DNA of 64,000 bases from Chiloscyllium plagiosum. Its lineage: Eukaryota. The stretch lies in contig NC_057718.1 of the NCBI RefSeq assembly GCF_004010195.1, positions 57,427,023-57,491,022 on the forward strand. Reading direction: 5' to 3'. Position 1 is the stretch's first letter. Each line of letters starts with the position of its first letter. Made by a program: the position numbers and the translations under genes. The notes under the pieces were generated by a model, which was given only the letters and a program-made list of their open reading frames with translations, made no database searches and was not told the origin of the DNA. Below, piece after piece: positions 4,117-63,030 of this stretch.

Positions 4117-5525
4117 ACAATGACACCTTGCAAAATGTCCAGTTTACAGAGGAGGAAGTCCTGGGTGTCTTGAAACGGTTAAAGGTGGATAAATCCCCAG
4201 GACCTGATCAGGTGTACCCAAGAACTCTGTGGGAAGCTAGAGAAGTGATTGCTGGGCCTCTTGCTGAGATTTTTGTATCATCAATAGTCACAGGTGAGGT
4301 GCCGGAAGACTAGAGGTTGGCAAACNNNNNNNNNNNNNNNNNNNNNNNNNNNNNNNNNNNNNNNNNNNNNNNNNNNNNNNNNNNNNNNNNNNNNNNNNNN
4401 NNNNNNNNNNNNNNNNNNNNNNNNNNNNNNNNNNNNNNNNNNNNNNNNNNNNNNNNNNNNNNNNNNNNNNNNNNNNNNNNNNNNNNNNNNNNNNNNNNNN
4501 NNNNNNNNNNNNNNNNNNNNNNNNNNNNNNNNNNNNNNNNNNNNNNNNNNNNNNNNNNNNNNNNNNNNNNNNNNNNNNNNNNNNNNNNNNNNNNNNNNNN
4601 NNNNNNNNNNNNNNNNNNNNNNNNNNNNNNNNNNNNNNNNNNNNNNNNNNNNNNNNNNNNNNNNNNNNNNNNNNNNNNNNNNNNNNNNNNNNNNNNNNNN
4701 NNNNNNNNNNNNNNNNNNNNNNNNNNNNNNNNNNNNNNNNNNNNNNNNNNNNNNNNNNNNNNNNNNNNNNNNNNNNNNNNNNNNNNNNNNNNNNNNNNNN
4801 NNNNNNNNNNNNNNNNNNNNNNNNNNNNNNNNNNNNNNNNNNNNNNNNNNNNNNNNNNNNNNNNNNNNNNNNNNNNNNNNNNNNNNNNNNNNNNNNNNNN
4901 NNNNNNNNNNNNNNNNNNNNNNNNNNNNNNNNNNNNNNNNNNNNNNNNNNNNNNNNNNNNNNNNNNNNNNNNNNNNNNNNNNNNNNNNNNNNNNNNNNNN
5001 NNNNNNNNNNNNNNNNNNNNNNNNNNNNNNNNNNNNNNNNNNNNNNNNNNNNNNNNNNNNNNNNNNNNNNNNNNNNNNNNNNNNNNNNNNNNNNNNNNNN
5101 NNNNNNNNNNNNNNNNNNNNNNNNNNNNNNNNNNNNNNNNNNNNNNNNNNNNNNNNNNNNNNNNNNNNNNNNNNNNNNNNNNNNNNNNNNNNNNNNNNAG
5201 GCAAACTCTTTTCCCTGGGGTCGGGGAGTCCAGAACGAGAGGGCATAGGTTTAGGGTGAGAGGGAAAAGATATAAAGGAGACCTCGGGGCAACCTTTTCA
5301 CCCAGACGGTGGTACGTGCACGGAATGAGCTGCCAGAGGAAGTGGTGGAAGCTGGTAAAATTGCAACATTTAAGAGGCATTTAGATGGGTATATGAATAG
5401 GAAGGGTTCAGGGATATGGGCTGGGTGCTGGCAGGTGGGACTAGATTGGGATGGGATATCTGGTCAGCATGGACGGGTTGGACCGAAGGGTCTGTTTCCA
5501 TGCTGTACATCTCTATGACTCTATG
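4117..5525 (+). mobile_element. 5'-truncated CR1 LINE spanning an assembly gap
   Basis: EEVLGVLKRLKVDKSPGPDQVYPRTLWE lies before the gap. RTRGHRFRVRG...TFKRHLD and a CTCTATGACTCTAT tail follow it. Confidence 0.9.
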
Positions 5526-5953
5526 TGCTTTATCATTGTGCTGGGCTTAACAGTATGGAGACCATCTTGCACAAAATTCAATCTCGGCCATGCCACCCAT
5601 AAGATGACTAAGGAGTCCATAAATACATCTTTTATGATGTCCTATCTCAAGGTGGTCAGTACAAATGAAACATGATTACCTTTTAAAAAAAGCCTTTAAA
5701 CGTCTGCACAAAAGACTACCTCTCTTGGGTAAACATTCCAGCCAACCAACCCAACTGGAAGAAAACCATTAAATCTGGTTCAGCTCACAATATCTAACAT
5801 TCACAGAGGTATGCCTGAGGTGGGTAAGTACAGACATTTACATAATCCCCAAAATGACAATGTAAATTGTAAATTCTGTGGGCATCCGTTTCGCCTCTGC
5901 ATAGAATTCTTCAGCCAAGGGAGGACTCACAGGTGATAGTGTCACCATGTCAT

Positions 5954-6287
5954 GGGGTGGCATGGTGGCTCAGCAGTTAGCACTGCTGCCTTTCTGCACC
6001 AGGGACCCGGGTTCGATACCAGCCTCAGGAGATTGTCTGTGTGGAGTTTGCACATTCTCCCCGTGTCTCCGTGAGTTTCCTCCGGATGCTCCAGGTTTCC
6101 TCCCACAGGCCAAAGATGTGCAGGTCAGGTGAATTGGCCATGCTAAATTGCCCATAGTAATAGGTGCATTAATAGGGAGTAGGGGAATAGGTCTGGATGG
6201 GTTACTCTTCGGAGGGTTGGTGTGGACTTGTTGGGCCGAAGGGCCTGTTTCCGCACTGTAGGGAATCTAATCTAATCTAATCTAATC
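5954..6287 (+). mobile_element. HE1-like tRNA-derived SINE
   Basis: A-box TGGCTCAG and B-box GGTTCGATACC, the conserved core GTGTGGAGTTTGCACATTCTCCCCGTG, and a (TCTAA)n tail. Confidence 0.9.
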
Positions 6288-6289
6288 AT

Positions 6290-6820
6290 TTACAGATTGA
6301 AGGTGTCAGGACAGGTTGAGGGAGTGATTAATAATATTACTACATCCTAGGGTTTAATATTAGCAGCATAGAATACAAATGTAAGGATGATACATGAAAT
6401 GTGTGTAGAACACTGTTTCAACCTTAATTTTAATACAGAATTAAGAGGACGTTTCACAAAGGTGTCCATGAGAGACCAAGAAAAAAACTGTTCTGATTAG
6501 TGCAATGCCGAGAATGAAAGGGCATACATTGATGGTAATTGACAAATTAAGCAATGGTGATGGGAGGAATAACCTTCTTAAGCAGCAATATGAGGTGGGC
6601 TGTCTAAAAGTGTAGTGGAGGCCTGGTTCACTCAAGGCATTCAAGAGGGAATTGGCTAATTACATAAAAAGAAGAAAACATTGGGGTACGTTTGTTGAAG
6701 TAGGGTGGGGTGAAGGCTGGTGGGGAGGTGACACCAGGTAAATTGCTCCTTTGAAGAGCCAGCACTGACAGAATGGACTGAAAACTCTTGTGCTGTAAGT
6801 ATTCTGTGATCCTGTGATGC
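6290..6820 (+). mobile_element. Old CR1-like LINE 3' fragment
   Basis: Degenerate similarity to the CR1 RT C-terminus and 3' UTR of other copies in the window, with a CTGTGAT-like tail. Confidence 0.5.
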
Positions 6821-20968: not shown

Positions 20969-21948
20969 GCAACAATGAGCCTGCCAAGGGAGGCTGAGAA
21001 ATTGGCTTGGACAAGAACACTTGTTCCAGGGCATGCTAGAGGAGGGGAAATGTGGCAAAGGGGCAATTAAAGGCGAGACGTTTGGTCATTATGAACACAG
21101 AATGTAACCTAAAACGTAGTTGAGGTGGCAGCAAGATCTTGGGGAATGAAGGCAGGCAACTGGTAAGGAGGAGGAAAAGTAACAGTGATGGGGTAAGGAG
21201 ACAAGTAAGGGTGGATGTTGCATGTTTAGAATAGGAAACTGAATGGGATGATGAGATGTGCTAGTGAGGTGGAAGGAGCAGATGAATTGGAAAAAAGTGT
21301 CAAGGTAAGGCTGGACATGGGGTGTTGGAGGAACTTAGGCACAGGGAAAAGCAGAAAGGTCAAGGGAAGAGGTGAACATGGCATGGTGACATGGCCACAG
21401 TAACTGAGGAAGATTGACAGAGGGGAAGCCAGTGAAAAGTGGAAGACCTTTTACAGTTATGCAATGGGTTTAGGAGGTCTTTACATTAGAGGAGAGGTTT
21501 AAGGGTGAAGGAATCAAGGAAAAAATTAACACACCTCTTTCTCTGGTTTCTGGTCACAAAATAGTCCCTCACTGAGAATGTTTAGCAAAAATGGGAGACG
21601 CCTCAGCCATGGTTGTATGAATTCCTGGAGAGACCAAAGACTCAAATATGTTTAACATGAAACAGAAACAAGAACAAAGCACTGCACAAGCATTCATTTG
21701 GGGACAATATACTGAAATGAAGTGTTCATGCCAGCATAAAGACTGCCATGATCTAGCCTCTTATGATACCGACACCTAATTAGGGTGTCTAATACATTGA
21801 AGTCTGAGTTCAAGGGTAACAAATACTCAGCAACAATTGATTGATGGGTTGACGGTATGATGTAGGTTGTTTCATGTGAAGCCATGCAGAAGACACACTA
21901 TCTTGGATAGCTAAAACTGAAGGTCATGAGTATGGAATCACTTAACAT

Positions 21949-22276
21949 GATTAGATTAGATTCCCTACAGTGTGGAAACAGGCCCTTCAGCCCAACAAGT
22001 CCACACCGACCCTCCGAAGAGCAACCCACCCAGACCCATTACCCTACATTTACCCCTGACTAATGCACCTAACACTACGGGCAATTTAGCATGGTCAATT
22101 CACCTAACCTGCACATCTTCGGACTGTGGCAGGAAACCGGAACACCCAGAGGAAACCCACACAGACACAGGGAGAATGTGCAAATTACACACAGTCAGTC
22201 ACCAGAGGCTGGAATCGAACCTGGGACCCTGGTGCTGTGAGGCATCAGTGCTAACCACTGAGCCACCGTGCCACCC
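21949..22276 (-). mobile_element. HE1-like SINE, full length
   Basis: Reverse complement of the 5954-6287 family, including the tail and tRNA head. Confidence 0.92.
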
Positions 22277-22727
22277 AATGTTGAGTTCAACACTGCAGGG
22301 GAGAATGAACAGACAGAGAGAGCTAGGAATCAGAGTTAGCTATGTGGGATGTACCATAATCTCAAGACTATAAATATCTTGCTCATGGCTGATCGAAGGT
22401 TAGGCCAAGCTAGCCATGAGTCATGCAGAATGGGCCTCCCTATGCTGAGGTAGGTGCACCCAAGACTTCAGCAACCTGAGGAGGGCCCAAAGATTAAGGA
22501 GATAAGCACAATTTTGCAAGCAGAACCCAAACATATATCCTCCTATTTGTTAAAGAGTCCATGCTTTAATGCAAGATTTTTGGTCAGCTAAACCCAACAA
22601 CTCCTAAGGAGGAGGAAGAGGCAAAGGCAGGGCTAATGGCAACAACTGCAGAGATCTGGGCCTCCAGCTGTGGAGAAACAAATGACCCCTGAAGAGGGGA
22701 TCCTGGGGCAATGGATGCTGTCGATCA

Positions 22728-29061: not shown

Positions 29062-29432
29062 TAGAATAAAGTCGAGAAGTGTGGCACTGGAAAAGCACAG
29101 CAGGTCAGGCAGCATCTGAGGAGCAGGAGAGTTAATGTTTTGGGCATAAGCTCTTCATCAGGAATGTGGGGTGTGGGGACAAGGGGCAGAGAGATAAATA
29201 GGAGGGAGGTGGAGCTGGGGGGAAGATAATAGCTGGGGAAGGCAATAGGTAGATGCAGGTGGAGGGTGATAGTGACCGGTCAGAGGGAAGGGTGGAGCGG
29301 ATAGGTGGGAAGGAAGATGTACAGGTAGGACAGTTCAAGAGGGTGGTGTTGAGTTGGAGGATTGGATTGGATTGGATTGGATTGGATCTGCGATGGGGCG
29401 CGGGCAGGGAAGATTAGGAAACTGGTGAAGTC
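29062..29432 (-). mobile_element. Penelope-like element 3' end (terminal repeat with hammerhead motif)
   Basis: The reverse complement contains CCTGATGAAGAGCTTATGCCCAAAAC. It is homologous to 56018-56350. Confidence 0.8.
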
Positions 29433-32118: not shown

Positions 32119-33080
32119 TAGAACAACAAAAAGTGAAGGTTTCAGTTTACAGTTAATCAGGACTTGAATATTATGGATAAAAGTTATGTAAATTTTTATT
32201 TGTTCTAAACTACTGATTCATTTGTCTGAAAATTAGAATAATATTTAATTATGGCTTGCAAATTTCTTTGTAATAATTCACATAGATAAGATTATTTCTT
32301 TAATTATATTTAATAGAGTTCCAATTGTGATAAAATCAAATTCAAATTTTGAGTGATCAAGAGACAGAATGGGAATAGTGAAAGTTACATTTTATTTTAC
32401 CAGTGTGCTAAGAGTTGATAACTCATCAACAGTAAAATCATAGAGTGCATAATCATGAACTTCCTAACAAGTGGAATAAACCAAAGGTTCCACTTTGTTT
32501 TCAATTTCTTGGTCTATCTTTTGCACATTTGGTTTCTGTGTAAATAACATTTCTTGCTACTTACTACATCTATTGCTACTATTCTTGGTGCACTAAATGC
32601 AAGGCAATCATCAGTTTACAATGATCAATAAAAACCATTATATGGCTCATTTATGCTAGTTGGAAACAACATGCAAATATATGCATACTCCTTGCTAGGA
32701 CTTACTCCAATCATACGATGGAGCATGTGGGAATATTTTGGTTTCCAAAGTATGAATAAAATTTAATCTCTTTTGTTTCAGTGAGGTTTATCGCATGTAT
32801 CAGATCCTTTAAAAATGATATCTGTGTTGTATGAATCAGGTGTTATATCCTCATCTAGATATAATCAGCTACTACTTTGAAAACCTAACAAGACTTGAAT
32901 TAAGCACATATAAACCTTCCATCTTCAAAGCTTTATGAATTGCCCTGAGTAAAGATTAACATGTTGACCCAGAGCAGGCAGCCATGACTGAATGTCTATT
33001 TATATCTCCATACAGAGTTCCTAATTTAAAAAAAAACTTAGGATTTATATAACAGTCCATACACACAACTTCCCAGAATA

Positions 33081-33402
33081 CAGCACGGTGGCTCAGTGGT
33101 TAGCACTGCTGCCTCACAGTGCCAGGGACTCCAGTTCAATTCCTGCCTTGGGCGACTGTCTGTGTGGTTTGCACATTCTCCACGTGTCTGTGTGGGTTTC
33201 CTCTGGGTGCTCCAGTTTCCTCCCACAGTCCAAAGATATGCAGGTTAGGTAAATTGGCCATGCTAAATTCCCCATAGTGTTAGGTGCATTAGTCAGGGGT
33301 GAATGTTGGGGAATGGGTCTGGGTGGGTTGCTGTTTGGAGGGTTGGTGTGGACTTGTTGGGCCGAAGGGCCTGTTTACACACTGTAGGGAATCTAATCTA
33401 AT
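33081..33402 (+). mobile_element. HE1-like SINE
   Basis: Same head, core and (TCTAA)n tail as 5954-6287. Confidence 0.92.
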
Positions 33403-33569
33403 CATCAACCATGCCTAATATTTTACTGTTAGATTGCATATTTACTTTTACGTAAATACAAAACAACTTGTATGACCAGTACACCTAAAGTAATTTATGT
33501 GCAAACAAAACTTTTTCCTTAACTAAAATATCGTAATTTAAAAGAATAATTTATTTCTTGAACAATGCT

Positions 33570-34136: not shown

Positions 34137-34140
34137 GTAG

Positions 34141-34498
34141 TATGAGAAACAGAACTCACTCACAAATCAGCCTGAGACAAAGCCTTGGAAACAAGAACAA
34201 TATATTACAGCCTTGCAAGTACCAGACGCTTCTGCAATCAAGCAGAAATGCGCGCGAAAACAGAGCATGTAAGCATTCTTATTCAGTTTGTAAGTTGCGG
34301 AATCACGCCTCCCTTTTCCCATCATAAGCCAATTACCTCACTTGTTTTTTTCTCTCTAGTTATTTTCTTATCTGGCCATCCTGCTGTCCTTGTATGTCTG
34401 CATTCTTTGTTCCTTGTTTGTTACAGCTTGTTCTTTTATCCAGCCCTCCACAACACCCCCTCCCCCACCTGCAGAAACTACTTTTCTAATCTCCCACA
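34141..34498 (-). repeat. ERV 3' LTR (358 bp; lacks 192 bp present in the 5' LTR)
   Basis: Direct repeat of 41377-41916. On the minus strand it starts TGTGGGAG and ends CTCATA (CA mutated). Confidence 0.95.
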
Positions 34499-34520
34499 AT
34501 TCCCCATTTTTCTTTTTCTC
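34499..34520 (-). promoter_or_regulatory. Polypurine tract
   Basis: Minus-strand GAGAAAAAGAAAAATGGGGAAT lies directly before the 3' LTR TG. Confidence 0.85.
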
Positions 34521-34610
34521 TAACTGTTGTTTCTACACTTATTAAGTCTCCTTTAATTCATTTTCTTATGTTCTGCCCTCTTACGCCTTTTGGCAATGAG
34601 GTTCACAATC

Positions 34611-36130
34611 TTACATTTTACATTTGTGTTGTTCGTCCCTTTGACGCATTCTTTGACTTTCCCTTTGTTGCATATCACCTGCTGATCGTAAAAGCATCTG
34701 ATGATTTATTTGGGTTCCTTCCCCAATGGATGTCATCAGTCGGCTCATTACCCATTTTAGGACATTGAACCCTACCACCAGACCCACGAATATCAATAAT
34801 CCATAGATAGCTAGATTGACTAACCGCCTTCCCCAACCAGTCAATCCCCAATTCCCCCATTCCCATCCTTTTTCGTTCTGGTACTGATTACTGGCCTCCC
34901 TTATCTTGGCGATTTTGTCTCGCACATGTTTGGAGATATCAGTAATGTTAGAGGAGATCTCAGGTATGTACGTACAACATTCCTCTCCAATTAGTGCACA
35001 GGTACCACCCTTCTCTGCCAGAATATAATCGAGAGCTATCCTGTTGTGAAGAGTCGTTAGCCTAGTGGCAATCATTTCGGTCGTTATGGCTGCTACTTGG
35101 GATTGGGTTTCGGCCAACACATCAGCAGTATTGTTGGCCAACTCTTCTAGGGAAGCCGCCAATTTTTGTATTTCTACTCCTGCTCGAGCAGTCCCATACA
35201 TAGGTATCAAAGTCCAGAGGAGGCGATCTCCTTCGGTTACTTTCCGGGTTACTTGCCTTCCTCCCTGTTTATTCTGAGGTATTTTTGGGGCTCTCTTTAA
35301 CAGCCTCAAGTGGGGAATTATATAGGCGAGGTAGCAGCAGCCACTCCAGCCTTTCTGGTTCTGGGGTAGTGTCTGAACTGGATGGTCCCAGCACCCATTC
35401 CCGTGACATCCGCCACTCCAAACGTACTTCTCGCCAGGGATAAATGGGTAGACCTTTAAGCCACACACCCAATATGTCCCATTCAATACTAGGAGAATGG
35501 TTGTGGGAGTAGCTTGACTGGTGTGGACACAAGATGATTTTCCTAATCGGAAGGGTGCAGTTTCATTCTGATTACAGAAACAAGTGGTATTTACTGCTCC
35601 TTTCGGTGGGGAAACTCTAAGGCCATCGATAGCACCCAGAGTTTTCGGGCCTGGTCAAGGGAACCATCCCGCAAAGTTATAATTACCCCTGTCAGATCTC
35701 CATTTTGTATTGTTTGAGCCCGAGTCAAATTGTTGTACATCGTACACTTCTCTTTTGGTAAGTGGTATTACTGTGAGAGGAATTCCGGATTCCCCATGGT
35801 GTGGGATCTCTTATTCCTGATGAAGGGCTTTTGCCCGAAACATCGATTTTGCCTGTCCTCGGATGCTGCCTGAATTGCTGTGCTCTTCCAGCACCACTAA
35901 TCCAGAATGTGGGATCTCAGCACATACCCAACAGTCGGTATGCCCCTTTAGTTTAGCATAATTCTGATATAAAGCGGTAAAATGATTTTTCTCACCCGTG
36001 ACAATATAAAGCTGACCACTCATTTCAGCTCACAACCCTATCTGTCTATTCCCTAACCCTTTGTATGCCAGGGAGGAGTGAGTCCATGCAACACTTACAA
36101 TTGTTTTGGGATACAGTTTTTTTAACCAAC
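34611..36130 (-). pseudogene. env: Retroviral env (gamma-type); N-terminal SU disrupted, SU C-half and TM open (34611-35654)
   Basis: It has a CWVC motif, the immunosuppressive domain LHNRIALDYILAEKGG, CALIGEECC (CX6CC) and a TM helix LAIYGLLIFVGLVVGFNVL. There is a TGA at 35655-35657 and an insertion at 35811-35907. The start position is approximate. Confidence 0.93.
35811..35907 (+). mobile_element. 97-bp Penelope terminal-repeat insertion carrying a hammerhead motif
   Basis: It is absent from the paralogous env copy (~38095-38106), has an 11-bp TSD TGTGGGATCTC (35800-35810 and 35908-35918), and contains CTGATGA-A-GGGC-TTTT-GCCC-GAAA-CATC. Confidence 0.9.
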
Positions 36131-36143
36131 ACTTAATAGTCTC

Positions 36144-36770
36144 TTATCTCAGTCCATTCTTTTTGCTCAGCTTGACTTTCAAAGGGTTGTCTGTAGGATG
36201 TGCTTGCCACTCTGCCGGAGGGGAAGGAGCGTCCACCGGGCCCTTAACGCGAGTGTGATGACTCCACCCTTTTTCAGCAGTTCGGACGGCTGTTTCAGTA
36301 GTCAGGAGGGTTAGGAATGGTCCCTCCCAGCTTGGGTGCAGTTTGGTATCTTTCCAGGTCTTTATCAGGACCCAATCACCCGGTCGTATCCGATGTACTG
36401 CGAACTCAAGTGGAGGTGTCTGGGTCAACAGACCCTTCTTCCTAATGACAGACAAAGAAGAGCCGAGCGCCAGAATATTGTTCTTTAAAAACTTATCATT
36501 GAACTCTACAGTTGGGAATTGTCCTGTCACTTCCTCATCATTTCCTCTAATTAGGGTTGGCTCAAAAATAGACACCAAGAATTCTTCGCCTTTTACTCCG
36601 GAAACCCTGCGATTCTTGTTAGTCAATTTAACACCGGTAGGTCTAAAACTTAGGGATGACCGTGCCGCTCCCATGTCCACCAAAAATACTGCCTCCTCCC
36701 CTTCAGGTCCCACCTTTAAATTTATCAAGGGTTCCCGGTGGGTCTCAGGAGGAAGGAACCCCTGACTCCC
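36144..36770 (-). pseudogene. pol: Truncated pol, copy B: protease N-terminal part fused in frame to the integrase C-terminal domain
   Basis: EPLINLKVG...VFLVDMGAARS (the DTG position) joins at ~36516 to ...RPGDWVLIKTWK...WEGPFLTLLTTETAV...WSHHTRVK. Confidence 0.9.
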
Positions 36771-36773
36771 CTA
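36709..36773 (-). promoter_or_regulatory. gag UAG readthrough signal with pseudoknot
   Basis: TAG, the 8-nt spacer GGGAGTCA, stem 1 GGGTTCC/GGAACCC and stem 2 CCCACC/GGTGGG. Confidence 0.75.
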
Positions 36774-37164
36774 ATCTTCATCTAAGGTCATTAGGGAAAC
36801 GGCTTCCCTTTCTCGTGCTAATTCCGGGCATTCTCGTTTAAAATGCTCCACTTTCCTCCAATGGTAACACCCTGCCTGTTGCCTCCTTTCCCGGGTGTCT
36901 AACCTTTGTCTTTCGTGTCCTCCCCTATCCTTCCTGTTATCCCGTGATCCCAGTCTCCTTTTTGTTAGTTCTTCTAATGCCGCCACCATCATTTTGGCTT
37001 TCTGTTTCTGCTTCTCGTCTTCCCTTTTCACATACACTTTCTGTGCCTCACATAACAGTTCTTCCATCTGTCTTTCACTCCATTCATCTAATTTCTGTAA
37101 TTTCTTTTGTATGTCTGGCCATGATTTAGTTACAAACTGGACCTTTAAGAGTCCCTGTGCTATC
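36771..37164 (-). pseudogene. gag: gag 3' part, copy B (CA C-terminus and NC)
   Basis: EELLCEAQKVYVKR...CYHWRKVEHFKREC (a knuckle Cys is mutated to Trp). The copy is cut by the gap. Confidence 0.9.
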
Positions 37165-37571
37165 NNNNNNNNNNNNNNNNNNNNNNNNNNNNNNNNNNNN
37201 NNNNNNNNNNNNNNNNNNNNNNNNNNNNNNNNNNNNNNNNNNNNNNNNNNNNNNNNNNNNNNNNNNNNNNNNNNNNNNNNNNNNNNNNNNNNNNNNNNNN
37301 NNNNNNNNNNNNNNNNNNNNNNNNNNNNNNNNNNNNNNNNNNNNNNNNNNNNNNNNNNNNNNNNNNNNNNNNNNNNNNNNNNNNNNNNNNNNNNNNNNNN
37401 NNNNNNNNNNNNNNNNNNNNNNNNNNNNNNNNNNNNNNNNNNNNNNNNNNNNNNNNNNNNNNNNNNNNNNNNNNNNNNNNNNNNNNNNNNNNNNNNNNNN
37501 NNNNNNNNNNNNNNNNNNNNNNNNNNNNNNNNNNNNNNNNNNNNNNNNNNNNNNNNNNNNNNNNNNNNNNN

Positions 37572-38330
37572 GAGGTATTTTTGGGGCTCTCTTTAACAGC
37601 CTCAAGTGGGGAATTATATAGGCGAGGTAGCAGCAGCCACTCCAGCCTTTCTGGTTCTGGGGTAGTGTCTGAACTGGATGGTCCCAGCACCCATTCCCAT
37701 GACATCCACCACTCCAAACGTACTTCTCGCCAGGGATAAATGGGTAGACCTTTAAGCCACACACCCAATATGTCCCATTCAATACTAGGAGAATGGTTGT
37801 GGGAGTAGCTTGACTGGTGTGGACACAGGATGATTTTCCTAATCGGAAGGGTGCGGTATCAATCTGATCACAGAAACAAGTGGTATTTACTGCTCCTTTC
37901 GGTGGGGAAACTCTAAGGCCATCGATAGCACCCAGAGGTTTCGGGCCTGGTCAAGGGAACCATTCCGCAAAGTTATAATTGCCCCTGTCAGATCTCCATT
38001 TTGTATTGTTTGAGCCCGAGTCAAATTGTTGTACATCGTACACTTCTCTTTTGGTAAGTGGTATTACTGTGAGAGGAATTCCGGATTCCCCATGGTGTGG
38101 GATCTGAGCACATACCCAACAGTCGGTATGCCCCTTTAGTTTAGCATAATTCTGACATAAAGCGGTAAAATGATTTTTCCCACTCATAACAATATAAAGC
38201 TGATCACTCATTTCAGCTCACAACCCTATCTGTCTATTCCCTAACCCTTTATATGCCAGGGAGGAGTGAGTCCATGCAACACTTACAATTGTTTTGGGAT
38301 ACAGTTTTTTTTAACCAACACTTAATAGTC
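37572..38330 (-). pseudogene. env: env SU part, copy A
   Basis: HTDCWVCAQIPHH...AEWFP* has the same stop as copy B. The copy is cut by the gap. Confidence 0.88.
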
Positions 38331-38399
38331 TCTTATCTCAGTCCATTCTTTTTGCTCAGCTTTAGTCTCTTATCTCAGTCCATTCTTTTTGCTCAGCTT
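38326..38399. repeat. 37-bp tandem duplication unique to copy A
   Basis: TAGTCTCTTATCTCAGTCCATTCTTTTTGCTCAGCTT occurs twice. Confidence 0.9.
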
Positions 38400-38432
38400 G
38401 ACTTTCAAAGGGTTGTCTGTAGGATGTACTTG

Positions 38433-38969
38433 CTATTCTGCCAGAGGGGAAGGAGCTTCCACCAGGCCCTTAACACGAGTGTGATGACTCCACCCTCTTT
38501 CAGCAGTTCGGATGGCTGTTTCAGTAGTCAGGAGGGTTAGGAATGGTCCCTCCCAGCTTGGGTGCAGTTTGGTATCTTTCCAGGTCTTTATCAGGACCCA
38601 ATCACCCGGTCGTATCCGATGTACTGCGAACTCAAGTGGAGGTGTCTGGGTCAACAGACCCTTCTTCCTAAGGACAGACAAAGAAGAGCCGAGCACCAGA
38701 ATATTGTTCTTTAAAAACTTATCATTGAACTCTACAGTTGGTAATTGTCCTGTCACTTCCTCATCATTTCCTCTAATTAGAGTTGGCTCAAAAATAGACA
38801 CCAAGAATTCTTCGCCTTTTACTCCGGAAACCCTGAGATTCTTGTTAGTCAATTTAACACCGGTAGGTCTAAAATTTAGGGATGATCCTGCCTGCTCCCC
38901 TTCAGGTCCCACCTTTAAATTTATCAAGGGTTCCCGGTGAGTCTCAGGAGGAAGGAACCCCTGACTCCC
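38433..38969 (-). pseudogene. pol: Truncated pol, copy A (same PR/IN-CTD junction plus a 27-bp deletion of the active-site region)
   Basis: It reads GPEGEQAGSSL where copy B reads GPEGEEAVFLVDMGAARSSL. The junction is at ~38741. Confidence 0.9.
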
Positions 38970-40473
38970 CTAATCTTCATCTAAAGTCATTAGGGAAACG
39001 GCTTCCCGTTCTCGTGCTAATTCCGGGCATTCCCGTTTAAAATGCTCCACTTTCCCGCAATGGTAACACCCTGCCTGTTACCTCCTTTCCCGGGTGTCTA
39101 ACCTTTGTCTTTCGTGTCCTCCCCTATCCTTCCTGTTATCCCCTGATCCCAGTCTCCTTTTTGTTAGTTCTTCTACTGCCGCCACCATCATTTTGGCTTT
39201 CTGTTTCTGCTTCTCGTCTTCCCTTTTCACATACACTTTCTGTGCCTCACATAACAGTTCTTCCATCTATCTTTCACTCCATTCATCTAATTTCTGTAAT
39301 TTATTTTGTATGTCCGGCCATGATTTAGTTACAAACTGGACCTTTAAGAGTCCCTGTGCTATCGGATTATCGGGATCCATTCCCGAATACTTCCTTGTGG
39401 CCTCCTTGAGCCTTTTAAGAACTGCAGAAGGGTTTTCATCCTTCTCTTGCCGTACTTCAAAGGCCTTAACAAAGTTTTATGATCTAGGTGCCGCCTCTTT
39501 AATTCCTAATATTACCATTTCTCGTAGATCCTGCATTGACTCCCTATCTTCTCTGTCGTTATTTTCCCAATGAGGGTCAACATTTGAGAATTTCTGTTCT
39601 ACTGGGGCCCCTCCTTCCCCGACTGGGTGCTTCTTTTCCCATTCCTATAAAGCCTCTCTCCTAATCATACCTCGTTCTTCCCCTGAAAATAACGTTCCTA
39701 AAATTGCCATCAGTTCTCCCCAGGTATATAAATTAGGCCCTAGGAATTGATCTAATTGTTCGGCTAGTCCAACTGGGTCCTCTATTAAACTTTTCATTTC
39801 CTTTTTAAAGAACCTAACTTCACTGCTAGTTAAGGGAGCGTTTACATATCCGATTGTACCTTCCCCAATCGGAACATCTCTTAAGGGACATAATTTTATA
39901 TTTTCCATTATCCCTGCCCCTCCTTTACGTGTGGTGGCTCGAGTGTTTCTGAGCCACCCTAGGTTCTGCATCTTTTAGTTCAGAGTCGGTTCCCCTTTCT
40001 GTGTCTGGACTCGGTTCTACTTCGGGAGCTGTAGGCTCGTTCCGGGGAGTAGTATATGGGGGTGGATCCCATTGTGGCTTCCCTTGTTCATTCTTTTTCT
40101 GTTCTTTCCCTGATTCCTCCGTATTCATGGGACATAATTTTACTCCCGTGCTCCCTATCCAACATGCCGCATAATTGGACTCTTTTTGACTGTACGGTTC
40201 TTTTCGATTGACATATATATTAAAATCTTGACACAGCCAATCCTCATCGGACCCCCATATTTGGGTCAAAAAAAATACCAGACGCCTTAATACTTTCTCG
40301 AGTCCAAACGAAACAACAATAGTTTATCATTGTAGCCTTCTCTTTCTCCCACGTCCGGGAGTTGTGTTCCCAATTACCCAACATTTTCCCCAAAGGACTG
40401 TCGGGTGGAATATATTCCCCTTAACGTTATTAACAGATTGGTCGTTACACAGGCAACTCCCCATGCCTCCCAT
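38970..40473 (-). pseudogene. gag: gag, copy A (MA-p12-CA-NC), frameshifted
   Basis: ATGGGAGGC start, IPPDSPLGKMLGNW, late domains PPPY and PTAP, GYVNAPLTSSEVRFFKKE...LDQFLGP, CYHCGKVEHFKREC, and a TAG stop. Confidence 0.93.
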
Positions 40474-41357
40474 TGTTGCTAATTTAATTAATCTTAACGA
40501 GGTCCGGTGTCACCTTCTTCCATACCCCCTTCAGGGTCCTGACTAGACACCTTACTCGTCCGATTAATCTGACCAATTATGTGTTTTTTTTTTGAGACTT
40601 CAACTGTTCTCCATAATTCACTTTTATGTAAGGATAAGAGATTAGTTAGAAACTGATGGTAAGGCAGTCATGACCTGTAAAAAGAACAGGAGTTAACATT
40701 TTATTTCATAATCTGTAAAATCTTTAACTTTAAAAGAAATCATGTTAAAATTTCCATAGTAGAAATCAGATTCAAAACAGTCCCGGATCTCAAGCTCCAG
40801 GGAACAAAGCACAAACATTCAATCTCACAGACACTTTGAGCTTCCCGCAACAACTCCTCTAGCTTTTGAATATTTTTCTGGACGTCTGGCCGTAAGTTAG
40901 TTATGAAGTGCACCCTCAGTAGCCCTTCAGCTACTAGCCCTTCTGACATGGGCTGTTTTCTATTGACATATGCTTTATTTTATATATCGCCAATTCCCCG
41001 TACTTTTGTACGTCCCGACCACCAAGGCAATACTTCAAGGTCTCTTTTCTTACCTTGGTCTGTGCACAGAGTTATCTGGTCTTTTCGGTGCGCCCCGTCC
41101 CGCGGCAATTCCTGCAGCAAATACTGCTGCCCCCAGTCGCCCGGATATATCCTTTAAGACCTTTGCTTACCCAGGTATTGTGCACAAGAGTTGCCCAACC
41201 GAACCCGCCGCGTCTGCCCGCCTTGATTCCAGGGTCTCCCAGTCCGGATCATACTCGTCCAAACCGCGAACGACAAGCAAGGGAGTCGGAGATCACTGAA
41301 ATTTGTGAGGTGCACCTCCCCCGTCATCCCAAGAGTGTCGAGCGGTCGGAGTTTTAG

Positions 41358-41375
41358 ATCCCAGACGAGCCCCAA
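41358..41375 (-). promoter_or_regulatory. Primer-binding site, tRNA-Pro type
   Basis: TTGGGGCTCGTCTGGGAT differs at two positions from the tRNA-Pro PBS TGGGGGCTCGTCCGGGAT and lies immediately after the 5' LTR. Confidence 0.88.
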
Positions 41376-41376
41376 T

Positions 41377-41916
41377 TGTGAGAAACAGAACTCACTCACA
41401 AATCAGCCTGAGACAAAGCCTTGGAAACAAGAACAATTTATTACAGCCTTGCAAGTACCGGACGATTCTGCAATCAAGCAGAAATGCGCACGAAAACAGA
41501 GCATGTAAGCATTCTGACTCAGTTTGTAAGTTGCGGAATCACGCCTCCCTTTTCCCATCCTATCATAAGCTGATTACCTCACTTGTTTTTTCTCTCTAGT
41601 TATTTTCTTATCTGGCCATCCTGCTGTCCTTGTATGTCTGCGTTTGTTACAGCTTGTTCTTTTATCCAGTTTCTCTTATCATACTATAAGCTTTATTGCG
41701 AAATGCCCCTGCTGCTGCTTTTTGTGGTCAGCTACAACCCTTCATAGTTATTTCCTAGCTTAAAACTATTTTCTTTAAAAGACCCTCTATATTCATTAAA
41801 GTCTTAGCCTTAAGTATGCTACAAGATTCCGCGACCGTTTGTATCATGTTCCCCTTCCCCTCCCTCCACAACATCCCCTCCCCCACCTGCAGAAACTACT
41901 TTTCTAATCTCCCACA
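41377..41916 (-). repeat. ERV 5' LTR (540 bp)
   Basis: Minus-strand TGTGGGAG...TTTCTCACA, with AATAAA at 41437-41442. Confidence 0.95.
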
Positions 41917-43309
41917 GTAGAAGTCAGCAGAGTCCTTATAGGGCTTTCAGTTTAACTGCATTCAGTTCAACTGCACTATTTTAATTTGCTGCATTGTGAG
42001 TGATCTAGGACAATGTTCTTTACCATGCATAGAAGGAAGAGCCAGCTGAGCCTGCAAGTTCAACTATGTTCCACAGACTGTCAAGTGCAACATTGGACCT
42101 TAAAATGAATATTCAACAAAAAAAGCAAAAACACAATTTATTTTCTAAATCATGTTCCCTTATTCAAAACTAATATGTCTGTTATCTCCTTTTGCAACAT
42201 CAATGTATCAATGACTAAACCAAATTGTGAAACTCTGCCTTTCTTTTTGACTGTGGATGCTGAAACGATCTCTTCAGCTGTACTATTCTCGTCTACCATT
42301 CCTACCTGTTTGCCATGAACTTTACTGTGTATAACTTTTGATTTTCCTGTTCAATACCATCAACTTTTGTTTTCATATCTATCACATGCACTTGCAAGGA
42401 TTTATAGATTCCTGAATTTGCTGTCAATCTATCATGACCTCAACCTGAGGCAGGGCTGAAATCTGGAGCTTTACCAGAGCCTGGAAGAATTTTGTTTCCT
42501 CTCTTCCTGTAAATTGTCTGGATTTGACCAACTTCCTCACAGGCATAGCACTTTGACTTGATTTGAGAGCATTTAAATGTTTAGTGATAAAAGGGGAAAA
42601 GTAGCATCTAAATTTCTGACTGAGTCTGTGAACTGGCTTCTGTGCGTCGATATCTGTGAATTCATTGCAGGCAGTGGTTATTTTACAAGTTTTAGTCTAG
42701 GTTTAGTTTTTGCCTCCCAACAAAGCTGGCAACAGAAAGGTAACAGAGTGCAATGTAGTAAAATGCTGATATCTTGCATATGCCACAATGAGCATGGCTT
42801 CGAACTTTTCAGTTAAAACATTTATCTCCATGTTTTTAAACAAAAGTGCAATTAAATTGTGAAGCTTTTATAATACTTTTTTTTTTCTTCAGTTGAATAG
42901 AAATTTTTTTTGCCTGGATATGTATTTTTTACCACAAAATTACAAAATAGATAGGACGAGTAAGGTCTGATTCACTCCAGACCCACAATGTGGTTTATGC
43001 TTATTTTCTCTCTGCCTAGCAAGTCACTCATTCCCAAGGAATCAAGGGATGACAATAAGTGCAGGCGTTGCTGGTGATACCCACCTCCTTAGAGCAATAA
43101 AAACACTTGGAAGAAGCTTTTTTGTGGTTGCAGACCAGTTGGATGTTGACAAAGTATAAACCTTTCCTGTTGGTAGATTTGAGTGGGCATTAACTGGGTA
43201 CGCCTTTGGCCACATGTGTGCAATTGAAGATGCCATGCACCTGGGGAATCCAGTGGTACTGGCAGTATTATTATGCTTCACTTCGGTTGTGTGGAGGAAA
43301 TCAAGCCCC

Positions 43310-50359: not shown

Positions 50360-51935
50360 ATAGAACATAGAACATTACAGCGCAGTACAGGCCCTTCGGC
50401 CCTCGATGTTGCACCAACCTGTCATACCAATCTGAAGCCCATCTAACCTACACTATTCCATGTACGCCCATATGCTTGTCCAATGACAACTTAAATGTAC
50501 TTAAAGTTGGCGAATCTACTACCGTTGCAGGCAAAGCATTCCATACCCTTACTAGTCTCTGAGTAAAGAAATTACCTCTGACATCTGTCCTATATCTATC
50601 ACCCCTCAATTTAAAGCTATGCCCCCTCGTACTCGCCATCACCATACTTGGAAAAAGGCTCTCCCTGTCCACCCTATCTAACCCTCTGATTATCTTATAT
50701 GTCNNNNNNNNNNNNNNNNNNNNNNNNNNNNNNNNNNNNNNNNNNNNNNNNNNNNNNNNNNNCCGGAACTCGATCCCTCTATTAATAAAAGCTAAAACAC
50801 CGTATGCCTTCTTAACAATCCTGTCAATCTGGGTGGCAACTTTCAAGGATCTGTGTACATGAACACCGAGATCGCTCTGCTCCTCTACATTATCAAGAAT
50901 CTTACCATTAGCCCAGTACTTTGCATTCCGGTTACTCCGACCAATGTGAATCACCTCACACTTGTCTGCATTAAACTCCATTTGCCACCTCTCAGCTCAG
51001 CTCTGCAGCTTATCTATGTCTCTCCGTAACCTCCAACATCCTTCGTCACTATCCACAAATCCACCGACCTTAGTATCGTTTGCAAATTTACTAACACACC
51101 CTTCTACGCCCTCATCAAGGTCGTTTATAAAAATGACAAACAGCAGTGACCCTTGCGGTACACCACTCGTAACTGGACTCCAGGATGAACATTTCCCATC
51201 AACCACCACCTTCTGTCTTCTTTCAGCAAGCCAATTACTGATCCAAACTGCTTTATCTCCCACAATCCCATTCCTCCGCATTTTGTACAATAGCCTGCTG
51301 TGGGGAACCTTATCAAATGCCTTGCTGAAATCCATATACACCACATCAACCGGTTTATTCTCATCTACCCGTTTGGTCACCTTCTCAAAACCGTGCTGAC
51401 TGTCCCTAATCAAATTATTCTCTTCTAGATGATTATAAGTCCTGTCTCTTATAACTTTTTCCAACACTTTACCAACAACTGAAGTAAGACTCACTGTTCT
51501 ATAATTACCAGGGTTATCTCTACTCCCCTTCTGGAACAGGGAAACCACATTTGCTATCCTCCAGTCTTCTGGCACTATTCCTGTAGACAATGACGATTTA
51601 AAGATCAATGCCAAAGGCTCGGCAATCTCCTCCCTGGTTTCCCAGAGGATCCTAGGATAAATTCCATCTGGCCCAGGGGACTTACCTATTTTCACACTCT
51701 GCAGGATTTCTAATACCTCTTCCTTGTGAACCTCTATCCCACCTAGTCTAGTAGCCTGTATCTCAGTCTTCTCCTCGACAACATTGTCATTTTCTAGAGT
51801 GAATACTGTCGAAAAATATTCATTTAGTGCTTCCCCTATCTCCTCTGACTCCACACACAACTTCCCACTACTATCCTTGATTGGCCCTAATCTTACTCTC
51901 GTCGTTCTTTTATTCCTTAAATACCTATAGAAACT
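50360..51935 (-). mobile_element. CR1 LINE ORF2 3' portion, relatively young
   Basis: ORFs 50997-51860 ([28 protein letters not shown]) and 50448-50981. Confidence 0.95.
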
Positions 51936-52259
51936 TATAGCAACTTAGGCCTAAGATTATCCATTTTGGTGTTAAATTGTGGCAGTGGGCATCTTGGCTG
52001 GCATTACATCTATTAATGTTGAGGGTGAATTAAATGATTATCACCTCATTGCTTGTGCAAGCATGATGTTGCATGAATGCTCAGCAAATGACATTGGGTG
52101 AGTCAGAATGTATTCCCCACCCCTGGTAGAACTTGTCAGGGTAATAATTTCTATATTTAAGGCTAACGAAACACCAGGTCACTTGCTGCAAACCAGTGGC
52201 TTGCACTTAGCCTGGGTGGTTACAGATCATCTGTCATAAGAAGCAGATGCTCACCCATC

Positions 52260-56017: not shown

Positions 56018-56830
56018 AGGAGAAAGTGAGGACTGCAGATGCTGGAGCTGAGAGTCGAAAAGTGTGGTGCTGGAAAAGCACAGCAGGTCAGGCAGAATCT
56101 GAGGAGCAGGAGAATCAATGTTTTAGGCATAAGCCCTTCAGCAGGAATGTGGAGGGTGAGGGGAAGGGGCCAAGAGTTAAATAGGAACTGGGGAGATGGT
56201 AGCTGGGAAGGTGATAGGTGCAGGTAGAGGATGTGACGGTGGAAGATTGGAGCGGCTCCCGGAGCAGATAGGTGGGAAGGAAGATGGACAGGTGGGACAG
56301 TTCAAGTGGATGGGTCGTGTTGGAGCTTTGGAGCTGGGTTGAGATGGGGGGAGAGGAGATTAAGAACTTGGTGAAATGAATGTTGATGCCATGTGGTTGG
56401 AAGGTCCCAAGGCAAAACATAAGGTGTTCTTCCTCCAGGCATTGTGCTGGCTAGGATTTGGCAGTTGAGGAGGCTCAGAATTTGCATGTCCTTGGCGGAG
56501 TGGGAGGGGGAGTTGAAGTGATCAGCCACAGGCCGATGGGGATGTTTGGTACGTGTGTCCCAGAGATGTTGTCTGAAATGTTCCACTAGTTGCTGTCCTG
56601 TCTCCCCAGTGTAGAGGAGACCATATTGAGAGCAATGGGCAAAGATGAGATGTTTGGATGTGCAGGAAAATCTCTGTTGGAAGTGGAAAGATCCTTGGGT
56701 GCCTTGGATGGAGGTGAGTGGGGAGGTGTAGGTGCAGGTTTTACACCTCTTGCAGGAGCAAGGGAAGGTGCTGGTAGTGGAGGGTGGGTTGGTGGAGGGG
56801 CGTGGACCTAACAAGGGAGTCACGGAATTC
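56018..56830 (-). mobile_element. Penelope-like element (GIY-YIG and terminal repeat)
   Basis: FPCSCKRCKTC...FSCTS...LLYTGETG...PVADHFN, with a decayed hammerhead at ~56115-56146. Confidence 0.9.
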
Positions 56831-57502: not shown

Positions 57503-57865
57503 GGATGGTACGGTGGCTCAGTGGTTAGCACTGCTGCCTCACAGCACCAGGGACCCAGTTTCCATTCCAGCCTTGGGTCACTGTCTGTGTGGAGTTTGCA
57601 CATTCTCCTCGTGTTGGTGTGGGTTTTCTTTGGGTGCTCTGGTTTCCTCCCACAATCCAAAGATGTGCAGGTTAGGTGAATTGGCCACACTAAATTGCCC
57701 ATAGTGTTCACGAATGTGTAGTTTAGGTGCATTAGCCAGGGCTAAATATGAGGAATGAGTGTGGATGGATCAGTTTTAGGAGGGTTGGTGTGGACTTGTT
57801 GGGCTGAAGGGGCTGTTTCCACACTGTAGGATTTCTATGATTCTAACAGGATTCTATGATTCTAA
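57503..57865 (+). mobile_element. HE1-like SINE
   Basis: tRNA head and core present, with a (TTCTATGA)n-type tail. Confidence 0.88.
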
Positions 57866-61554: not shown

Positions 61555-63030
61555 ATATACCAAGGCTTCTCTTATGCAGAGTCTGCTGCATAATATAAAA
61601 ATGCATGGCGTTACAGGTAAAGGATTAGCATGGATAGAGGATTGGTTTACTAACAGGAAGCAAAGAGTGGGGATAAATGAGTGGCATTCTGCTTGGTAAT
61701 CAGTAACTACTGGTTTGCCTCAGGGATCAGTGTTGGGACCGCAGTTATTCACAATTTACATAGCTGATTTGGAGTTGGGGACCTTGTGTAGCGTGTCAAA
61801 GTTTGCAGATGACATTAAGATGAGTGGCAGAGCAAAATGTGCAGAGGATTATGAAACTTTGCAGAGGAACATAGATATCTTAAGTGAGTGGGCATAGGTC
61901 TGGCAGATGGAGTACAATACTAATAAATGTGAAGTAATCCATTTTGGTAGAATAACAGTAAAAAGGACAATAACTTGAAAGATAAAAGGTTCTAGCCTGC
62001 TGCTTTGCAGAGGGGCCTGGATGTCCTTGTGCATGAATCACAAAGTCTGCAGGTACAACAAGTAATTAGGAAGGTAAGTGCGGTCATGGTGGCTCAGTGG
62101 TTAGCACTGCTGCCGCACAGCACCAGAGTCCCATGTTTGATTCCAGCCTTGGGCGACTGTCTGTGTGGAGTTTGCACATTCTCTGCGTGGGTTTCCTCTG
62201 GGTGCTCCGGTTTCCTCCCACAGTCCAAAGATGTGCATGTCAGGTGAATTGGCCATGCTAAATTGCCCATAGTGTTAGGTTAATTAGTCAGAGGGAAATG
62301 GGTCTGGGTGGGTTACTCTTTGGAGGGTCGGTGTGGACTGGTTGGGCCGCTGGGCCAGATCCCACACTGTCGGTAATCTAATCTAATCTAATCTAATCAT
62401 TACTAAAGGGATTGAGTTTAAAAGCAGGGAGGTTATATTGTAGCTGTATAGGATGCTGTCGAGGCCACACCTGGAGGAATGTGTGCAGTTTTGATCTCCG
62501 TATTTGAGAAAGGATGTACTGGCACTAGAAGTGTGCAGAGGAGGTTCACTAGGTTGATTCCGGATTTGAGTGGGTTGGCTTATGAGGAGAGACTGTGTAG
62601 ACTGGGATATATTCATTGGAATTAATAACAATAAAGGTAGAATCTCATAGAAACATATAAAATTATGAAGGAAATAGATAGACTTAGAGAGGATGTTTCC
62701 ACTGGCGGGTGAAACTAGGACAAGAGGGTTTAGCCTCAAAATTAGGGAGCAGATTTAGAACTAAATTGAGAATGAACCTCTTCACCCAGAAAGTTGTGAA
62801 TCTATAGAATTCCTTGTCCAGTGAAGATGCTACTTCAGTAAATATTTTTAAAGCTAAGAGATTTTTTTGAATGATAAAGGAATTAAGGGTTACGGTGAGA
62901 GGGCGGGTAAGTGGAGCTGCGGCCACAAAAACATCATCTGTGATCTCTATGACCTTATTGAATGGTGGAGCAGGTTCAAAGTGCCAGACGGCCTACTCCT
63001 GCTCCTAGTTCTTATATTCTTATGTTCTCA
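61555..63030 (+). mobile_element. CR1 LINE RT and 3' end interrupted by a SINE
   Basis: PQGSVLGPQLF, SKFADD and a 3' UTR ending TTCTTATGTTCT. Confidence 0.9.
62080..62398 (+). mobile_element. HE1-like SINE nested in CR1
   Basis: SINE head, core and (TCTAA)n tail. Confidence 0.9.

Follow-up and report, generated by a model that had tools for sequence, protein, structure and literature searches.

A decayed class I endogenous retrovirus of Chiloscyllium plagiosum that lost most of pol in one deletion

Endogenous retroviruses (ERVs) that carry deletions and were spread by a helper are already known in mice, cattle, macaques and chickens, and the chicken copies of EAV-HP are reported to lack pol. 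The spread of shared pol deletions by co-packaging is documented (PMC11379458, PMC10924933, PMC6466679; here and below, statements on cited papers refer to the portions of their text that were consulted). We compare with these systems an element that occupies 41916 to 34141 (minus strand) of a 64,000-nucleotide (nt) stretch of Chiloscyllium plagiosum DNA, which was analyzed as a whole and is called the window below. The element is a class I (gamma-like) provirus, and the principal result is that this copy is a dead, decayed retrovirus in which most of the enzyme gene is gone in one deletion, a common retroviral fate. As to origin, we give about an even chance to a deletion that occurred before integration, in a genome served by a helper, followed by one integration of this class I ERV of an orectolobiform shark and by its decay.

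The deletion in pol and the class of the element

The internal region is present twice, as copy A (39362-37572) and copy B (37164-35276), on either side of an assembly gap of 407 N (37165-37571) at which both copies stop exactly. When four pol proteins were compared with the window by tblastn, only the protease N-terminus and the tail of integrase (IN) aligned, and no reverse transcriptase (RT), RNase H or IN core was found anywhere in the element. Relative to the reference P0114, a pol of 1148 aa that spans protease, RT, RNase H and IN, the protein alignment retains residues up to ~62 and from ~1028, a loss of ~968 codons, or ~2.9 kb of pol, that joins the protease N-terminus in frame to the IN tail. 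Query codons 83-85 align to both sides of the deletion, a three-codon homology at the protein level, and with such homology at the deletion ends the frame is kept by itself. The junction lies at 38750-38742 in copy A, within a frame (38388-38969, minus strand) that has a 27-bp gap over the catalytic motif, an early stop at 38435 and a 37-bp duplication at its end. In copy B it lies at 36524-36516, within a frame (36144-36770, minus strand) that is open for 208 codons and has an altered catalytic motif; the protease half lacks its C-terminal third.

An earlier note on this DNA had recognized both the missing domains and the in-frame junction of the two copies, and these readings are borne out. 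It had also called the junction identical in both; the place is indeed the same, but one codon at the junction differs in its letters. Similarly, the protease N-terminal part is present, but extends ~83-85 codons from the gag stop instead of the ~70 amino acids claimed. With RT, RNase H and IN core absent and the cis elements kept, the element has a non-autonomous form, and the need for RT and IN in trans that had been stated is supported.

Every feature tested places the element among class I proviruses. Its 5' long terminal repeat (LTR; 540 bp, 41377-41916, minus strand) and 3' LTR (358 bp, 34141-34498, minus strand) both have TG..CA-type ends, and the same four bases stand at both flanks (target-site duplication, TSD, at 41917-41920 on the 5' side and 34137-34140 on the 3' side), so both ends belong to one integration. 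The two LTRs differ at 10 of 343 aligned sites (2.9% ± 0.9), with gaps of 192, 14, 5 and 1 bp; relative to each other, 192 bp are absent from the 3' LTR, whose U3 is shorter by that length, and 14 bp from the 5' LTR. The 3' LTR is preceded by a polypurine tract (34499-34520, minus strand; 20 of 22 purines). The primer-binding site (41376-41359, minus strand), read directly in the sequence, is one we take to be probably of the tRNA-Pro type. The gene order is gag-UAG-pro in a single frame, the Pfam matches are Gag_p30, MLVIN_C (murine leukemia virus (MLV)-type IN C-terminal domain) and TLV_coat, and env is gamma-type, with TLV_coat, CXXC in the surface subunit and CX6CC in the transmembrane subunit. 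The LTRs, TSD, polypurine tract and class assignment of the earlier note thus all hold.

The in-frame join was considered as a sign of function. Between copies A and B the fusion frame has 4 synonymous and 15 non-synonymous differences, a ratio of non-synonymous to synonymous proportions (pN/pS) of 1.21 (two copies, low power), and a 208-codon frame stays open by chance in 75% of simulations at 1.4% decay and in 57% at 3%. Neutral pN/pS and chance-open frames rule the join out as such a sign, against the meaning that had been attached to it: the fusion shows no sign of function and evolves neutrally. For all three coding parts together, pN/pS between the copies is 0.68 (p 0.15 vs neutral), with 0.43 for the gag 3' part and 0.52 for the env 5' part.

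In-frame pol deletions appear not to be rare in this clade, judging from annotated proteins. Comparison of 252 proteins with P0114 gave 26 internal jumps, many of which probably reflect faulty splicing in gene models. P0065 and P0113, in the same cluster as the full-length P0114, join protease to the whole IN, P0003 joins it to the IN core, and P0002, an unrelated protein, joins RT to the IN tail within a few codons of the same end point. It was also observed that the related P0065/P0113/P0114 family holds a full pol and the in-frame protease::whole-integrase form within one 90% cluster, the deletion form being present on three contigs.

Two internal copies, their decay and the timing of the deletion

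A comparison of copies A and B shows 47 differences over 1752 sites (2.7%) and gaps of 27, 37, 108 and 1 bp. The 108-bp gap corresponds to a fragment of a host repeat, 97 bp long and flanked by an 11-bp duplication (35811-35918), present in the env of copy B only; the insert is 83-85% like common host repeats at 29081-29165 and 56064-56148. Because the copies meet at the 407-N gap, between a single pair of flanks, and have two env lesions in common, they represent one integration: A and B are one decayed provirus, as duplicate or allele, and not independent evidence. On these grounds the pair of copies cannot serve as independent support for a lineage; the earlier note had drawn that support from the two junctions while omitting the assembly gap. 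Its claim that the deletion is older than the split of the copies is supported by the presence of the same deletion in both.

Whether the duplication is real is a nearly balanced question. An assembly artefact, with two haplotypes or paralogues that failed to merge at the gap and a real element of ~5.5 kb (5480 bp without the second internal copy), is rated slightly short of an even chance. Each copy breaks off precisely at the gap, following identical stretches of 47 and 127 nt, and false tandem duplications with an intervening gap are a described assembly error (PMC8081667). However, a divergence of 2.7% with four larger indels exceeds the heterozygosity of 0.1-1.6% quoted in the same source, the gap has a specific positive length, and the other two gaps of the window show no such overlap; the 873-N gap at 4326-5198, for instance, has edges without duplication. 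Moreover, two predicted gene models of C. punctatum carry two and three tandem IN-tail exons behind one leader, and tandem internal repeats seem to occur in this ERV family. The remaining weight goes to a real tandem duplication of ~2.2 kb. The IN-tail exons of the C. punctatum models are 0-4 of 78 residues apart mutually and 5-13 of 78 from A or B; being closer to each other, they point to a separate expansion. In these models (P0001 and P0089, that is XP_072406404 and XP_072406529), the two and three near-identical IN-tail exons with one ERV leader suggest tandem internal repeats or tandem proviruses.

Both gag and env can be detected, as had been claimed, but only as broken genes, and the usable gag and env of the proposed gag+env satellite are not found. 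In copy A, gag (38970-40473, minus strand) has at least two frame changes, read from frames -1, -2 and -3 against P0079 and P0063, and four early stops; its Cys-His box is intact and it ends in UAG. The gag 3' part of copy B (36771-37164, minus strand) begins at the gap, has an altered Cys-His box and ends in UAG. The env 5' part of copy A (37572-38211, minus strand) stops at the gap, and env of copy B (34611-36023, minus strand) includes the CXXC and CX6CC motifs. Relative to P0091 and P0112, two env relatives with an intact signal peptide, both copies lack the same nine signal-peptide codons, and peak hydropathy there is 0.35-0.55 vs ~3.0 in P0091/P0112. Both also have a stop at the same codon (codon 87 in A, numbered 123 in B).

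Copies A and B therefore have three lesions in common, namely the pol deletion, the env signal-peptide gap and the env stop. LTR divergence (10/343) is indistinguishable from A/B divergence (47/1752; Fisher p 0.86), and for an integration age of 1.5, 1.75 or 2 times that of the A/B split, P is 0.18, 0.07 or 0.022. Equal divergences, together with an unlikely twofold older integration, place the shared lesions near or before integration. The evidence thus leans towards a deletion already present at integration, which implies a helper; early decay in place is also compatible, so that the earlier claim of a deletion older than integration is favored but falls short of proof. In the env tree, the stem is 0.028 and the tips 0.020 and 0.027. 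Integration dates to 7-68 million years ago depending on the rate, the upper value following from the rate assumed in PMC4422223.

The env splice acceptor, relatives and surroundings

The retained IN tail probably holds the env splice acceptor. In copy B an AG at 36442-36443 (minus strand; 16 of 20 pyrimidines upstream) lies ~75 nt downstream of the junction, and in copy A the equivalent AG (38668-38669, minus strand; 17 of 20 pyrimidines) coincides with the exon start of gene models. The leader has a GT at 41052-41053 (minus strand), and at this point the leader exon terminates in two predicted C. punctatum models, XP_072406404 and XP_072406529, which resume with an exon beginning at 36443-36441 (38669-38667 in A). 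The predicted model XP_054038308 of the kittiwake, a gull-family bird, makes a similar donor-to-tail join. The pyrimidine-rich AG and these shark and bird models support the proposal that an env splice acceptor was retained with the tail. Of the two candidate donors previously named, ~41053 matches a gene-model exon end; ~41170 finds no support in gene models and was set aside as the less likely env donor. Separately, shark and other gene models (P0007, from a bird, P0188 and P0001) have a similar leader immediately ahead of the donor and share the IN-tail position to which it is joined. The end point of the deletion fits retention of the tail for env splicing, env itself being dead in this copy. 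The donor-acceptor pair common to shark and bird gene models places the env acceptor of the clade in the IN tail and accounts for many database proteins that oddly terminate in a piece of integrase tail.

In database sequences, the ERV family has several loci in bamboo and zebra sharks. Relatives of env were found on two C. plagiosum scaffolds (83-87%) and seven Stegostoma scaffolds (55-78%), and the env copies of the window group with two C. plagiosum proteins (99/96 support). The Env proteins XP_043563399, XP_043544711 and XP_048383747 of C. plagiosum and Stegostoma tigrinum belong to the same family (75-87% identity); the syncytin-1-like and PABLB-like labels of such relatives are automatic names only. 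Among named database entries, the nearest hits come from ERV proteins of birds, rays and bamboo sharks (50-65%). We presume a resemblance of gag, protease and IN tail to those class I ERVs of birds, reptiles and sharks that are related to HERV-I/HERVIP; no database hit carries that label, and placement in the group rests on RT, which the shark element is missing. The consulted parts of PMC4724089, PMC5753468 and PMC4133949 give no HERV-I/HERVIP markers usable for placement.

Contig scans with the fusion frame were blank for all 167 metagenome and all nine viral candidates, and a scan with P0114 was blank for all 12 viral candidates. A scan with P0002 gave eight distant loci, ~40% identical to P0114, P0002's own contig not among them. 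Two metagenome contigs, L001 and L003, are nearly complete class I-like proviruses at ~40% to P0114, L003 with gag, pol and env. In a sequencing-run word index, 14 of 24 listed rows (two organisms, five studies) contain a fraction of 0.30-0.44 of the words in 37572-43000, and six have small shares; no RNA run is listed as containing them, and the row shares are uninformative on junction, copy number and expression.

No host gene was found near the provirus: the 12 larger frames elsewhere in the window gave only one Pfam match, an RT. Broken RT frames (RVT_1) at 50448-51944 on the minus strand, probably of a LINE, include a 59-N gap (50704-50762). A dispersed repeat family occurs in both orientations at 5951-6290, 21947-22280, 33078-33416, 57503-57858 and 62079-62401, probably as LINE or SINE 3' ends.

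Origin of the deletion and described systems

A deletion before integration would have removed ~2.9 kb of pol in one step, between short look-alike stretches in protease and near the integrase end, most likely through template switching while the genome was being reverse-transcribed, ahead of the integration of this copy. Helper enzymes would then have packaged, copied and integrated the deleted genome. As the deletion stopped ~75 nt short of the env acceptor, leader-to-env splicing would still be possible, and selection may have kept the acceptor; the in-frame fusion would be a functionless by-product of codon-phased homology, and the second internal copy a duplicate or allele of the same provirus. 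Several observations pull the other way. The two breakpoints are known only at the protein level, and an integration age of 1.5 or 1.75 times that of the split of A and B still agrees with the data. The acceptor is backed by a peak among 177 IN-tail matches, of which 74 have at least 24 unaligned upstream residues and 22 of the 74 begin at the acceptor position, reference 1050-1059; this peak, though, counts some proteins repeatedly, and an alignment edge may account for part of it. None of three distant full-pol loci (~40% identity) has the acceptor AG at the corresponding position, and the site is therefore not general. The locus also loses DNA privately, since deletions of 14, 27 and 192 bp arose after integration or the split. 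The same fusion is absent from sets of 64 and 24 protein hits and from the best 150 in a set of 823, although such frames are seldom annotated, and lack of a second junction among annotated proteins is weak evidence either way. Finally, no close full-pol helper was found. That none of the 24 longer hits with other pol domains reaches 70% identity, in a family whose env relatives lie on several scaffolds, speaks weakly for the pre-integration reading, in annotation that misses most ERVs.

Many of these points would suit a private deletion, in which a full-length integrant lost 2.9 kb by germ-line microhomology-mediated repair and was then duplicated or split into alleles, with neither helper nor lineage. 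Short terminal homology is as compatible with host repair as with template switching, the post-integration losses show the locus shrinking on its own, protein and contig searches gave no second junction locus, and the wide error of the LTR divergence (0.029 ± 0.009) leaves time before the A/B split. We nevertheless hold this account to be somewhat unlikely: the three shared lesions must fit a short interval, an end point just upstream of the acceptor is needless for neutral loss, and annotated proteins include no close full-pol relative, while a different pol-bearing family, 63% alike in the IN tail, is represented by five C. punctatum models. The absence of a close pol also lends weak support to a mostly pol-less family. 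A satellite lineage selected for working Gag and Env, with a fusion perhaps acting in cis as in IAP 1-delta-1, would explain the 208 open codons of copy B, the retained acceptor, the lower pN/pS of the gag and env parts and the intact signal peptides of P0091 and P0112. It is improbable given an overall pN/pS indistinguishable from neutral, the ratio and chance openness of the fusion, the signal-peptide core and env stop lesions of both copies, and a protease half without its C-terminal third or an intact catalytic motif. We consider it equally improbable that the deletion is a cryptic intron, spliced from a genomic RNA that was then reverse-transcribed and integrated, likewise before integration and helper-dependent. 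The junction bases do read like an exon-exon boundary, and P0002 has a junction of RT with the IN tail close to that end point; yet splicing is not needed for a junction that the three-codon homology already accounts for, the contig scan did not recover the DNA of P0002 itself, and the proposal is based on no full-length family DNA.

The preferred pre-integration reading could be carried further. A pol-less sublineage may have spread in carpet sharks by trans-complementation, its deletion halted before the acceptor as spliced env was needed and the freed space refilled by tandem duplication of gag end, IN tail and env; the two- and three-exon models of C. punctatum suggest such refilling, but we regard this scenario as rather doubtful. 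If true, it would be a helper-dependent retroviral lineage in cartilaginous fish that is undescribed in the literature searched: a search at title and abstract level, with subscription journals mostly outside its coverage, found no paper on this ERV family or on pol-deleted shark ERVs. Shark ERV screens defined by pol (PMC4422223) would miss such elements.

Several described systems come close. SERV-K/MER11 (PMC11379458) has, like the shark element, a large pro-pol deletion with LTRs kept and U3 deletions, and is thought to spread by co-packaging; it is a class II element of macaques whose deletion is found in 32 proviruses, whereas the shark deletion is known from one locus. Mouse IAP 1-delta-1 (PMC6466679) likewise combines an internal deletion with an in-frame fusion and needs proteins in trans, but there the fusion is Gag-Pol, acts in cis and belongs to an active subtype, whereas in the shark it joins pro to the IN tail and is neutral, and env is retained but dead. 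The D-type of ERVK[2-1-LTR] in cattle (PMC10924933) is also a shortened, non-autonomous form, in that case of a full-length family; unlike the shark element, it is class II, makes up 85% of its family and is still mobile. The defective EAV-HP proviruses of chickens (PMC4607243) are believed to be helper-spread and, unlike the shark element, are Alpharetrovirus-related. The deletion described here is real and its kind is ordinary, deleted helper-spread ERVs being already known; the shark case extends that pattern without changing it.

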